Shown here piece after piece: positions 17,229-24,944 of a stretch of 64,000 bases of DNA. Source of the stretch: Minisyncoccia bacterium (lineage in GTDB: Bacteria; Patescibacteriota; Minisyncoccia; Phycocordibacterales; DATDWN01); contig JBAQTF010000015.1 of assembly GCA_049296855.1 (NCBI GenBank), positions 15,112 through 79,111 of the forward strand, given 5' to 3'. The notes beneath the pieces were generated by a model. The model had not been told where the DNA came from and searched no databases. It saw only the letters and a program-made list of their open reading frames with translations. The number at the start of each line of letters is the position of its first letter. Positions within the stretch are counted from its first letter, which is position 1. Made by a program: the position numbers and the translations under genes.

Positions 17229-17807
17229 TTAATACTTACGTATCACCCCTCGTACTATCGCACCAATTTTTAAATCGTACTGTGGGTATATGTTTTTATA
17301 ATCCTTGTTGGCTGGTTGTAGATAGACTTTGTTTCCATCTTTTCTGAAATATTTCATAGTCCAGCCACCATCTATCTCCGCGATAACGATGTCGCCATCT
17401 TTTGGATTATTGCGTCTCTCCGCAACCACAAGATCACCCTCCATAATACCCTCTTCTATCATCGAATCACCTTTGACCTCGAGAAGATAAGTCGATTCTC
17501 TGTTACCAACTAAATACTCGTCCAGACTAAGTGAATCGAGCGTGTGTGGATCAACCATTGTTGGAATACCCGCTTCGACTAGACCGAGAAGTGGTATTTC
17601 CCCAAATATTTTTATCGGAGTTAGTCTCCCTTTGGAATCTTTGTCTACTACCCCGTCTAGAACGAGTTTATTGATCAGTTTATAAACTGCATTTTTGGAT
17701 CGAAACCCGACAAGACCCATTATTTCTTTGTACCCAGGCATACGACGATTCTTTTGGTAGAAAGAAATTACTTTATTTTTTTGATTATTATAAACTTCTT
17801 CGCTCAT
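17229..17807 (-). CDS. lexA: LexA-type repressor with an N-terminal wHTH and a C-terminal S24 peptidase domain.
   Basis: The putative Ala-Gly autocleavage site is VEAGIP. The catalytic Ser lies in GDSM and a Lys follows in WTMKYF. The N-terminal region is HTH-like. Confidence 0.8.
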   Translation of the reverse strand: MSEEVYNNQKNKVISFYQKNRRMPGYKEIMGLVGFRSKNAVYKLINKLVLDGVVDKDSKGRLTPIKIFGEIPLLGLVEAGIPTMVDPHTLDSLSLDEYLVGNRESTYLLEVKGDSMIEEGIMEGDLVVAERRNNPKDGDIVIAEIDGGWTMKYFRKDGNKVYLQPANKDYKNIYPQYDLKIGAIVRGVIRKY

Positions 17808-17813
17808 ATATAT

Positions 17814-18008
17814 TTAGGCATTCATGAGTGACCTTAGTAACCATCCAGATCTATCACTCTGTCGAAGTCTGTACAAACTCGACTGCAAAAACTTGTGGCG
17901 CCGCGCCTCTCTCGCATACGATAACCCCTTTATAATCTTTGAATCTATTATATCATTCAAAGCTTCTAATTCCCTTATTAATGCTCTCTCTAAATTATAT
18001 TTGCTCAT
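17814..18008 (-). CDS. Hypothetical 64-aa protein, the possible first gene of the lexA operon.
   Basis: Its ORF ends 7 nt before the lexA start. A GC-rich leader hairpin (about 18040-18075) and the SOS-box promoter lie upstream. There is no recognisable family. Confidence 0.3.
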   Translation of the reverse strand: MSKYNLERALIRELEALNDIIDSKIIKGLSYAREARRHKFLQSSLYRLRQSDRSGWLLRSLMNA

Positions 18009-18097
18009 ATTTTTTATTTATTAAATTTATAATTTCTGGGTCTCGACCACTGCTCGGCTTCGCGCGGTTGCAAACCCTGATTTTTGCTATATCTATA

Positions 18098-18126
18098 GTT
18101 TAGTGAACTACAGTTCACCTGTCAAT
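18098..18126 (-). promoter_or_regulatory. Promoter of the lexA operon with a Cheo-type LexA box in the spacer: -35 TTGACA (18126-18121), 17-nt spacer, -10 TAAACT (18103-18098).
   Basis: Read on the minus strand, the site is TTGACA-g-GTGAACTGTAGTTCAC-TAAACT. The palindrome GTGAAC-N4-GTTCAC at 18104-18119 matches the GAAC-N4-GTTC SOS-box class. Confidence 0.55.
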
Positions 18127-18217
18127 GAACCTGTTGTGGATAACTTTTCTAGACAATCTATATACTATATTGACAACAACACTAAACTGCTGTAATTTTA
18201 TTGTCAGAGAGGTAAAT

Positions 18218-18535
18218 ATGAATGCTTTAGATCTGGTAAGAAAAACAGAGCAAATGCTCGTCGATGGTGGAATCCAGAAGTACGACCACGGCAAACGTGG
18301 TTACACTGTCATCGGAGACTTCCCGAAACAGACTCCGTCAGTATTGATGTCAACACCAAAGTTTGGTGTTGCCGCTATACCAACTGGGTGTGACTCTGTC
18401 GGAGAGAAACTCGACGAGGTTGAGAGATACCTGAAAATCCTCAACGAGAACGGAGTCCCTGCTGAACCAGTGATACGTAAGGATGAAGACGACGCCATCA
18501 TCTTTGCGTGGATACCAACATCGGAGCAGGAATGA
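18218..18535 (+). CDS. Hypothetical 105-aa protein, transcribed divergently from the lexA operon.
   Basis: An RBS (GAGAGG) precedes the ATG at 18218. A -35 TTGACA and -10 TAATTT lie upstream, and a terminator follows at 18550-18590. Confidence 0.5.
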   Translation: MNALDLVRKTEQMLVDGGIQKYDHGKRGYTVIGDFPKQTPSVLMSTPKFGVAAIPTGCDSVGEKLDEVERYLKILNENGVPAEPVIRKDEDDAIIFAWIPTSEQE

Positions 18536-22751: not shown

Positions 22752-23825
22752 TTACCTACTTTTTTGTTTTGACAATGATCTCAAAGATGATACAGGTTTA
22801 ATCTGCTTGTTTTTTGTATAATTATTCCAAAGTTTATTAAATTGAACGCCCAACACATATCCCAACTCCACAGGAACAGCATTTCCTATTTGTCTATATT
22901 GGGAGCTATTTGGTCCGTAAAATATAAAATTATCAGGAAATGTTTGTATCCTAGCCACTTCTCTAATAGTCATCCTTCTTTTTTGAGACGGATGAGGTAA
23001 TATTACTGGACCACCAGTACCACCACCCCTACCAACAATAGTTGGGGATGGTTTATTTTCATCCGTGTGTCTATTACCTAAATAACCATTAATTTTTACT
23101 TTATGTTTCGTGCCTTGATGATTAGGTATACTTGAATCATATTCAAGTGGTAAATCCCCGATTGTTTCTCCTACTGTTTTATAAAATTTAATACTTTTAT
23201 CATTATTAAAAAGTTCTAACCATAAATTTTTATTATCGCTATAATTTTTAGGGAAATGAGTCTTGATTGGAAATTCAAATTTTAAATCAATGTCATTTCT
23301 TATACCAACCATAACCATTCTTTTTCTTAACTGAGGTACACCATAATCAGCTGAATTTAAAATACTCCAATGAACATTATATCCAATATCTTTGAAATCT
23401 TTTAAAATCATTTTAAAAACTCGTCCAAGTTTATTTTTTTTGTCTTGCAATGTATCATAACCTCCTAAATTTGTAATACCTTGCACATTTTCACCAAGAA
23501 AAAACTTTGGTTTTTTATCCAGAACAACCCTTAATAATTCTTGGTACAAAAAATTTCTCCTATCTTTCTCATTTCTATATGGATTAGCAACAGAAAAACC
23601 TTGACATGGGAAACCTCCGATGACCATATCACAATCTGGTATATCTTTAGATGATATATCTATAATGGATTTACATATAACCACCTCATCTTCATCAGTT
23701 ATATTATATTTATAAGTATCGATTGAATCCTTATCAAAGTCATTTGCCCAAATAATTTTATGTCCGGCTTTTTTTAAGCCAAGATCTAATCCACCACAAC
23801 CACAAAATAAGGAGACTATTTTCAT
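22752..23825 (-). CDS. DNA (cytosine-5)-methyltransferase.
   Basis: Present are motif I FCGCGG, motif IV PCQGFS, the ENV motif, RKR..VG, and GNAV in motif X. It lies 4 nt downstream of the 332-aa ORF. The sequence is AT-rich. Confidence 0.9.
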   Translation of the reverse strand: MKIVSLFCGCGGLDLGLKKAGHKIIWANDFDKDSIDTYKYNITDEDEVVICKSIIDISSKDIPDCDMVIGGFPCQGFSVANPYRNEKDRRNFLYQELLRVVLDKKPKFFLGENVQGITNLGGYDTLQDKKNKLGRVFKMILKDFKDIGYNVHWSILNSADYGVPQLRKRMVMVGIRNDIDLKFEFPIKTHFPKNYSDNKNLWLELFNNDKSIKFYKTVGETIGDLPLEYDSSIPNHQGTKHKVKINGYLGNRHTDENKPSPTIVGRGGGTGGPVILPHPSQKRRMTIREVARIQTFPDNFIFYGPNSSQYRQIGNAVPVELGYVLGVQFNKLWNNYTKNKQIKPVSSLRSLSKQKSR

Positions 23826-23829
23826 AAAT

Positions 23830-24828
23830 CTATATTAAAATATTAATGTCTTTATCAATTTCTTTAAAAACTGCACTGCACTCATCAATAATCATTTTTT
23901 TATATTTAATATTATTTGGATAAGAATTTACATATTCAATAAAATATTGAGAAATTTTATCTTCTGTTTTTAAAATCTTATTTATTACATGTTTATCTAA
24001 AAAACTAAAATCTAGATTTATTTTTTTCCCAATACCAAAAATAGGCTCTCTGTTCATTCTTATTGAATTACCCTCCCAACGATTAATAATTGTTACTAAA
24101 TTTTCAGGTGTTGAACTTTTTTCTTCTAGTAATTGAGCAAATTTATCCCCTTCTATAAAATATAGGGTTATTTTTGTTTTATCTTTGATTAAGATGATTA
24201 AATCATCTGAAAAAACAAACTTCACTAGGTTAGAAAAACGCTTTCTAAATTTATTATATTGATTATGTTTTTTAATTCCATTTAGTAAATTTAATAATCG
24301 TGGTTTTGACCCTAATCCAATTTTTTCTGAATTTACACCTTTTCTTTCATTTAAATATTGTTCTACATTAAATCCACTAAATAGAGTGGTCTTTTCAAGT
24401 GAGCCAAAATTAATCTCTTTATTATCACTCATAAGGGTCTTAACTGACAAAAAATAATTTCCTCCTATTCTCACATCCGACTTTTCTCTTTTATTGGAAA
24501 TCGCAAAACCAGTAATTGTTTCATTTTCTAAATAGAAATTAAGTTTATTTGAATTCACTCTCTTTTCTTCATCTGTAATTACACCATCAAAAATAGTGGC
24601 TAGTATATCTTCGAAATCTCTGGAAGTTGTCTTTCTTTTTGCAACAGTTTCTTTTGAGATATTGTTGTATAAATAGTAATTTAAGTAAGCATAATTAAAT
24701 TTATTTTTCTCAGTCTCAAGTTTTTTAAAAAAATTATAAATTACCTTTAAACCAACTTTCTCAGTGGAAACTTTTTCTTTACTATTAATAGTGTCTATAA
24801 TTATTTTTAGTATATTTAGATTCGTCAT
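23830..24828 (-). CDS. Hypothetical 332-aa protein, first in an operon with the C5-MTase. It is a candidate restriction endonuclease, or an unknown partner of the MTase.
   Basis: I recognise no motifs. It is extremely Lys/Asn/Ile-rich and AT-rich, and is tightly linked to the MTase with a 4-nt gap. A promoter embedding a GAAC-N4-GTTC palindrome lies about 70 nt upstream. Confidence 0.45.
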   Translation of the reverse strand: MTNLNILKIIIDTINSKEKVSTEKVGLKVIYNFFKKLETEKNKFNYAYLNYYLYNNISKETVAKRKTTSRDFEDILATIFDGVITDEEKRVNSNKLNFYLENETITGFAISNKREKSDVRIGGNYFLSVKTLMSDNKEINFGSLEKTTLFSGFNVEQYLNERKGVNSEKIGLGSKPRLLNLLNGIKKHNQYNKFRKRFSNLVKFVFSDDLIILIKDKTKITLYFIEGDKFAQLLEEKSSTPENLVTIINRWEGNSIRMNREPIFGIGKKINLDFSFLDKHVINKILKTEDKISQYFIEYVNSYPNNIKYKKMIIDECSAVFKEIDKDINILI

Positions 24829-24891
24829 TATAATTATAACTCTACTACTTTACTACTTAATAATCTATATTAGGATTGATCACATTTAATA

Positions 24892-24920
24892 TGTTAAGTG
24901 AACTATAGTTCACTAGTCAA
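24892..24920 (-). promoter_or_regulatory. Second palindrome-in-spacer promoter: -35 TTGACT (24920-24915), 17-nt spacer AGTGAACTATAGTTCAC, then -10 TTAACA.
   Basis: The palindrome GTGAACTATAGTTCAC at 24898-24913 differs from the lexA-promoter box by one central base. It has the same architecture as the site at 18098-18126. Confidence 0.5.
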
Positions 24921-24944
24921 TATGCACCTGTGTATAAGTAAAAT

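Follow-up and report, generated by a model that had tools for sequence, protein, structure and literature searches.

The window analysed here is a 64,000-nucleotide (nt) stretch of the genome of a Minisyncoccia bacterium (GenBank assembly GCA_049296855.1, contig JBAQTF010000015.1, positions 15,112 to 79,111), and our subject is a two-gene cassette on its minus strand. As the original prediction described, the genes are separated by only 4 nt (TAG-ATTT-ATG): R (23830..24828) encodes a protein of 332 amino acids (aa) that we predict to be a type II restriction endonuclease with a PD-(D/E)xK fold, and M (22752..23825), 3' of R, encodes a 357-aa C5 cytosine DNA methyltransferase. Upstream of R a promoter scan calls a sigma-70-type promoter on the same strand, TTGACT-A-GTGAACTATAGTTCAC-TTAACAT (24891..24920), whose spacer is filled by a predicted LexA operator, GTGAACTATAGTTCAC (24898..24913). 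We consider it reasonably probable that this is an acquired type II restriction-modification (R-M) operon, R then M, which is repressed by the host LexA via the spacer operator and derepressed on DNA damage.

M is a canonical C5 methyltransferase, with matches to PF00145 in Pfam (3.7e-76), TIGR00675 in NCBIfam (3.9e-69) and MTase_II in PADLOC (4.5e-97); the nearest solved structures in the PDB are M.HaeIII and M.HhaI, and the full set of C5 motifs is visible in the protein sequence (FCGCGG, PCQ, ENV, QLRKR of the form QxRxR, and GNAVP). Since the gap between the genes is so short and there is no obvious ribosome-binding site in front of the M start, R and M are probably co-transcribed and translationally coupled, and induction should raise both together. 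The promoter and terminator scan found no terminator-like hairpin at the junction of M and the DUF2585 gene that follows it, so read-through from M into DUF2585 is possible.

The marked AT-richness noted originally is evident in the composition of both genes: GC content is 24% in R, 30% in M and 27% in the cassette, compared to 38% in the rest of the window, and the cassette is the window's minimum-GC 2-kb stretch, approximately 4 standard deviations below the mean. It is flanked by core genes, downstream by DUF2585 (homologues at approximately 70–84% identity, most from Patescibacteria) and upstream by a 125-aa open reading frame (ORF) and the gene for an LCAT-like 1098-aa protein; besides DUF2585, the genes nearby include one with an ArsR-type helix-turn-helix (HTH). 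Between the core genes on either side there are just these two ORFs, with neither a controller (C) gene nor an HTH ORF in the cassette, and the 116-base-pair (bp) region upstream of R contains no ORF. Cassette and promoter are identical, base for base, in four assemblies.

A rare family of predicted restriction nucleases

The 332-aa protein had been described as lacking any recognisable domain, which is borne out by sequence searches: there was no significant match in Pfam, NCBIfam or PADLOC, none among PDB sequences using phmmer or a 34-member profile, and per-member Pfam scans of the 34 homologues gave nothing significant. An identity with PF09520 (TdeIII), suggested by a precomputed flag on one homologue (P0011), was rejected as it was not reproduced by a Pfam scan. 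A cryptic PD-(D/E)xK fold was among those originally proposed as search targets and, while searches with profile models came back empty, the structural model of the protein has the alpha-beta-beta-beta-alpha-beta core and matches PD-(D/E)xK type II endonucleases; Foldseek comparison with the PDB returned no significant match. In an exhaustive profile search of 1.84 billion representative proteins, family members made up just 134 clusters at 50% identity, and the family is therefore small and isolated. The 118 homologues, all unnamed, come from candidate phyla radiation (CPR) bacteria, Gracilibacteria, Sulfurovum and Helicobacter brantae, and tblastn with R as the query recovered nothing from annotated plasmids or phages. 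This is a rare family of predicted nucleases, for which there is no Pfam, NCBIfam or PADLOC model.

Residues E73, D86, N112, R114, E115, K116, D118, K130, E138 and N140, together with an NRWEGNS block, are invariant in the family alignment, and S128 is nearly so. E73 lies on a helix, D118 at the start of a strand and K130 on the next strand, which at the level of the alignment fits the pattern D...(D/E/S/N/Q)xK of a putative active site; helical extensions are present at both the N- and C-termini. From the modelled fold we predict that the protein is a PD-(D/E)xK restriction endonuclease, which would cleave DNA in a sequence-specific manner. The original prediction had proposed either a novel restriction enzyme or a new effector; the structural match and the adjacent C5 methyltransferase argue for the former. 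Judged by its fold and its genomic setting, the partner of M belongs among the ordinary restriction nucleases and does not constitute a new effector type. We think it very improbable that it is instead an accessory, specificity or nicking protein, which would leave the methyltransferase effectively solitary; the empty sequence-family searches and the non-significant Foldseek result would be in keeping with such a role.

No recognition site for the predicted nuclease could be assigned from palindrome depletion: values in the window were 0.63 for GATC and 0.55 for GCNGC, compared to 0.73–0.79 for the same words in control loci, i.e. Patescibacteria loci without this R family. GATC is low around all homologue clades of R.

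Co-inheritance with a methyltransferase and acquisition of the cassette

We assembled 84 loci of the R-M family, 80 of them metagenomic loci found via the family profile and the other four belonging to close homologues, using tblastn for M. In 73 of the 84, R is directly adjoined by a cognate C5 methyltransferase that is 43–79% identical to the window's M over nearly its full length, and the other 11 include contigs that end beside R; wherever neighbouring DNA is available, the association holds family-wide. Three arrangements occur among these loci (R then M, M then R, and convergent), and because the genes have been co-inherited across such changes in gene order we interpret R and M as a type II R-M pair.

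The closest cassettes (69–77% identity) occupy unrelated genomic contexts, one of them sitting between glycosyltransferase genes. Another is separated by approximately 480 bp from a tRNA-Gln gene, and its locus further includes genes for a serine recombinase and an Mrr-like protein. The similarity of the closest cassettes to the window starts exactly at the ATG of R, suggesting that the mobile unit consists of the two ORFs without a promoter of their own. It had been considered that the cassette might simply be conserved core genome; in relatives, however, the slot bounded by the LCAT-like gene and DUF2585 is a variable island with different cargo. In locus L010 this comprises genes for a PhdYeFM antitoxin, a MazG-like protein and a fusion of a helicase with an S24 peptidase; in L213 it is a HicA toxin gene; and L214 has canonical lexA together with a C5 methyltransferase gene and, convergently oriented, the gene for a BcnI/LlaMI-type nuclease. 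The lowest GC in the window, the occurrence of the same pair in other contexts, homology that begins at the ATG and the other cargo in the relatives' slot all indicate, on sequence grounds, that the cassette was horizontally acquired, as first suspected from its composition.

A promoter with a LexA-type palindrome in its spacer

The -35 hexamer of the R-M promoter, TTGACT, lies at 24920–24915, and the -10 may be read either as TAACAT (24896–24891) or as TTAACA (24897–24892). A consensus promoter scan independently calls TTGACT-18-TAACAT with the palindrome within the spacer, and the promoter as first described, with TTAACA and a 17-nt spacer, corresponds to this site. The palindrome takes up 16 of the 17–18 bases between -35 and -10, where it is placed to occlude the promoter. 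Exact copies of GTGAAC-N4-GTTCAC number two in the 64-kb window compared to 0.02 expected, and none of 100 shuffles reaches two. The looser GAAC-N4-GTTC is not significant alone (3 in the window, 1.36 expected), near-matches with up to two mismatches are at chance level, and the window contains neither recA nor dinB.

The second exact copy (18103–18118) lies in the promoter of the lexA operon, TTGACA-G-GTGAACTGTAGTTCAC-TAAACT (18097..18125, minus strand). This operon includes the predicted trans-acting repressor, a 192-aa LexA (17229..17807, minus strand), which was correctly recognised in the original prediction: the ORF scores 123 bits against TIGR00498, above the NCBIfam equivalog cut-off of 111, matches Peptidase_S24 (6e-27) and displays the features of LexA self-cleavage (an Ala-Gly site in VEAGIP, the serine of GDSM and a downstream lysine). 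The reported likeness of the two promoters also stands, since the architecture is the same and the 16-bp palindromes differ at one base only, in the central N4; the coordinates then assigned to the lexA promoter, 18098–18126, were one base off and should read 18125–18097. Both palindromes begin one base after the TTGAC(A/T) of the -35 and fill the spacer. The two sites are 6.8 kb apart, and the promoters share approximately 43 bp, with a score of 43 compared to 19.8 ± 2.8 for shuffles.

Two simple origins for the R-M promoter found no support. A segmental duplication of the lexA promoter is not supported beyond the core, as the likeness stops at approximately 43 bp and there is no extended homology to approximately 200 loci; the same applies to a LexA box that originally served DUF2585, since in six relatives the DNA in front of that gene was without a box.

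The palindrome as the LexA operator of the lineage

Scanning one genome per GTDB species with the pattern TTGACNNGTGAACNNNNGTTCAC identified at least 120 LexA-box loci, mostly from Patescibacteria, Nitrospirota and Omnitrophota. Genes located behind the layout TTGAC-N2-GTGAAC-N4-GTTCAC include lexA or its leader ORF, recA (L020, L032) and Y-family polymerase/dinB genes (L066, L103). Among the loci listed, the first gene downstream most commonly encodes either a LexA of approximately 190 aa or a small conserved leader ORF, and 86 of the 120 listed encode a LexA homologue. L010 and L213 were retrieved by way of DUF2585, without recourse to the pattern, and the half-sites of their lexA promoters are identical to those here, the N4 being different; the flanks of the R-M box (TAGTGAAC...GTTCACTT) recur at the lexA promoters of L045 and L092. 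The GAAC-N4-GTTC core resembles the Gram-positive LexA box. The proposal that the palindrome is a LexA site is thus upheld by the same -35, palindrome and -10 layout ahead of lexA, recA and dinB elsewhere, far from being confined to two sites in the window, and comparison across genomes leads us to predict with high confidence that GTGAAC-N4-GTTCAC is the LexA operator of this lineage.

The Patescibacteria LexA motif and SOS regulon were reportedly defined in 2017 by Sanchez-Osuna, Barbe and Erill in Environ Microbiol, a study to which PMC8565304 refers; that regulon and the genes described here have in common the phylum and LexA autoregulation.

In some Firmicutes and Actinobacteria (L025, L026, L031, L100, L105) it is a TetR-family gene that lies behind the same palindrome, raising the alternative that the site upstream of R is bound by a regulator other than LexA, or not bound at all, with the R-M operon being constitutive. 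However, there is no TetR gene nearby, the neighbours being DUF2585 and the ArsR-type HTH gene; the half-sites, the flanks and the position relative to the -35 match LexA-associated promoters, and a chance expectation of 0.02 leaves little room for coincidence. We therefore regard this alternative as unlikely.

A model for regulation of the cassette

We propose that the cassette brought no promoter and would be transcribed from the local sigma-70 promoter in which the 16-bp LexA operator serves as spacer. In an undamaged cell, a LexA dimer would block RNA polymerase, so that R and M would be expressed only at a low baseline, while DNA damage or the replication of phage DNA would give rise to RecA filaments, LexA self-cleavage and derepression of R and M together, with M protecting the host's own sites from R. 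Both LexA binding at the R-M site and SOS induction are inferred here from the sequence. On this reading, a DNA-cutting defence system is probably switched up by DNA damage.

Several observations weigh against this proposal. GAAC-N4-GTTC is found upstream of R or M in none of the 84 other R-M family loci, and conservation therefore lends no support to regulation of this gene pair. The -10 of the R-M promoter is weak in either form (TAACAT or TTAACA), and promoter-like hexamers within the AT-rich R gene could drive LexA-independent expression of M, although their number (28 compared to 20 expected) is uninformative.

Given the absence of the box from all 84 loci, the LexA wiring is best seen as local to this genome and not as a property of the cassette. 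There is no GTGAAC box in the LCAT-like/DUF2585 slot in the relatives checked, including L010, L213 and L214. The promoter thus appears to be local, being either already in the island or evolved there, and used by a promoterless cassette, and we take the predicted SOS wiring to have arisen in one lineage.

A promoterless R-M pair may also have landed by accident behind a pre-existing or duplicated lexA-type promoter, in which case the coupling would have no selected role and might be partly bypassed. This differs from our proposal with respect to origin and selection only, the mechanism being the same. Consistent with accidental coupling are the lack of conserved DNA upstream of the cassette, the count of 0/84 for the box in other loci, the lexA-type or S24 genes in the island of relatives (L214, L010), and the composite signature of lexA-operon promoters that the R-M promoter carries, i.e. 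an element of type TTATNCACA, 8–9 nt, the -35 and the box. However the likeness to the lexA promoter ends at the functional core of approximately 43 bp, with no extended homology to approximately 200 loci, and the arrangement is identical in four assemblies; we see accidental coupling as a genuine possibility but lean against it.

An operator that spans the entire spacer, in front of an operon in which R comes first, might instead be the mark of a suicide or abortive-infection switch, for which the LexA-repressed toxins tisB, symE and yafNO provide precedents (PMC3874152). The operon would then be near-silent and methylation incomplete, so that upon SOS induction R would cut the chromosome, feed the SOS response further and kill damaged or infected cells. 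We think this quite unlikely, as the R:M ratio should stay constant on induction given the shared transcript and the 4-nt gap, the cassette has been stably kept and is identical in four samples, and its close relatives (L005, L007, L132, L133, L135) are without this promoter upstream of R.

Comparison with known systems

The R-M system is ordinary in kind, combining a C5 methyltransferase with a predicted PD-(D/E)xK nuclease; what sets it apart is a nuclease family without a model and the predicted LexA wiring. The closest known type is Type IIP R-M, with PD-(D/E)xK nucleases of the ThaI/MspI/HinP1I group and C5 methyltransferases of the M.HhaI/M.HaeIII family. In contrast to Type IIP nucleases, the window's R could not be related by sequence to any family that has been solved or modelled, and compared to the small members of that type it is longer (332 aa), has its helical N- and C-terminal extensions and belongs to a rare family.

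Restriction enzymes endanger their own host, and the usual means of controlling their expression are controller proteins encoded in the cassette, antisense RNA or promoter methylation. Among the C-protein-regulated R-M systems are PvuII, BamHI and Esp1396I. The predicted arrangement resembles these in that a repressor operator inside the promoter would set transcription of the restriction gene, but the cassette has no C gene, regulation is predicted to come in trans from the host LexA, and the signal would be DNA damage, where C systems respond to the dosage of C protein on entering a new cell.

LexA is known to repress toxic SOS genes (tisB, symE, yafNO, dinJ-yafQ) and colicin operons (PMC3874152). 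As in those cases, the predicted LexA operator overlaps the promoter of a potentially self-damaging gene, the cargo here being an R-M pair. A 2014 review of R-M regulation names LexA control solely for toxin-antitoxin systems (PMC3874152), and we found no LexA-controlled R-M system in the literature, REBASE and the 2017 study of the Patescibacteria SOS regulon being outside the coverage of our search.

The proposal also recalls phage-defence genes that are derepressed by a DNA-damage or single-stranded DNA signal through BrxR, CapW or CapH/CapP. CapH/CapP are DNA-damage-responsive defence regulators. BrxR and CapW are WYL-domain regulators that likewise provide DNA-damage-responsive control of defence (PMC9122601, PMC9122589). 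All of these are encoded beside the defence system and are not LexA, whereas for the R-M operon we predict direct control by the global SOS repressor.

In E. coli, DNA damage is followed by restriction alleviation. If our proposal is true, phage and damage signals would raise both restriction and methylation, the opposite of this classical response, and anti-phage innate immunity would be tied to the DNA-damage response in a lineage of tiny-genome episymbionts. The operator and promoter pair provides clean, testable material for studies of LexA in Patescibacteria, and a rare nuclease family that is without a library model may be of use as a new enzyme.

The lexA operon and DnaA-box-like elements

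The first gene of the lexA operon is a conserved 64-aa ORF (MSKYNLERALIRELEALNDIIDSKIIKGLSYAREARRHKFL...; 17814..18008, minus strand), which has no Pfam or NCBIfam match. Homologous ORFs of 61–78 aa follow the same LexA-box promoter in approximately 40 Patescibacteria loci among those listed (tblastn matches in 12), and the ORF may encode a small SOS protein. Divergent from lexA is a 136-aa ORF (18125–18535, plus strand), again with no family match, whose start codon overlaps the -35 of the lexA promoter and which contains the sequence TTATCCACA (18135–18143); its expression is therefore possibly coupled to occupancy by LexA and DnaA.

On the minus strand, TTATCCACA (18135–18143) forms an element of the lexA-operon promoter that matches the DnaA-box consensus TTATNCACA. 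The R-M promoter has TTATACACA (24929..24937, minus strand), which also matches that consensus, 8 nt upstream of its -35. The TTATCCACA element occurs in addition at L010 10829, L213 9997, L212 2865 and L215 ~4944, and in LexA-box promoters elements of this type precede the -35 by 8–9 nt on the same strand. A TTATNCACA-type element is present in 28 of the 120 LexA-box loci listed, in 21 of them at 8–9 nt from the -35, compared to 3 for the control orientation or side. The gene downstream of LexA-box promoters with such an element is nearly always lexA or the leader ORF, and the element is also found at canonical-type lexA promoters, which use a different operator. There may thus be DnaA input into lexA transcription in Patescibacteria.

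R-M genes linked to lexA in related genomes

In L214 (3257–5751), the canonical lexA (LexA_DNA_bind and S24 domains) is followed after 20 nt by the C5 methyltransferase gene, with the BcnI/LlaMI-type nuclease convergent. In L216/L217 (5001–7439) the stop codon of lexA abuts the ATG of a gene for an MmeI-like N6 methyltransferase, and in L215 (5001–7899) lexA is accompanied by a convergent gene encoding a 760-aa HSDR_N/N6_Mtase protein. The methyltransferases that lie behind lexA in these relatives are probably co-transcribed with it and hence SOS-regulated, and as L214–L217 come from related genomes they may reflect a single hotspot. Candidate operators of these canonical-type lexA genes (L214 3150–3256, L215 4920–4990, L216 4950–5000) take the form ACCGAA-N6-ACCGAA and TTCGGT-N6-TTCGGT flanking the -35; since this putative operator is different, two LexA types with different motifs seem to coexist in Patescibacteria.

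It is tempting to speculate that R-M systems in Patescibacteria have repeatedly been plugged into the SOS response, through an operator in the window and through methyltransferases behind lexA in L214 and L216/L217, with LexA in the role of "controller protein", but we consider this doubtful. A general enrichment of methyltransferases near LexA boxes of the GTGAAC type was rejected, as only 2 of the 120 loci listed have one.

The 770-aa protein encoded in the island slot of L010 (4091–6403) combines a ResIII/SLFN-like helicase with a C-terminal, LexA-like Peptidase_S24 domain and adjoins the PhdYeFM antitoxin and MazG-like genes; it may be a damage-cleavable defence protein. In L212 (2865–5690), a LexA-box promoter (TTGACAGGTGAACTGAAGTTCAC) lies ahead of genes for an 84-aa zinc-ribbon protein, TspO, a holin-like protein, MgsA/RarA and dCMP deaminase, and this operon is divergent from a C5 methyltransferase gene that has those for a 360-aa unknown protein and an Mrr-like protein beside it.

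Finally, the gene behind the LexA-box promoter in L050, L060, L072, L080, L083 and L113, which are labelled Nitrospirota or similar, encodes a conserved protein of 79–92 aa with a consensus of about M..EIDEPI.VGAVFSRG.VKP.WF...GR.IRIREV...WKT..G, which appears to be an uncharacterised member of the SOS regulon.

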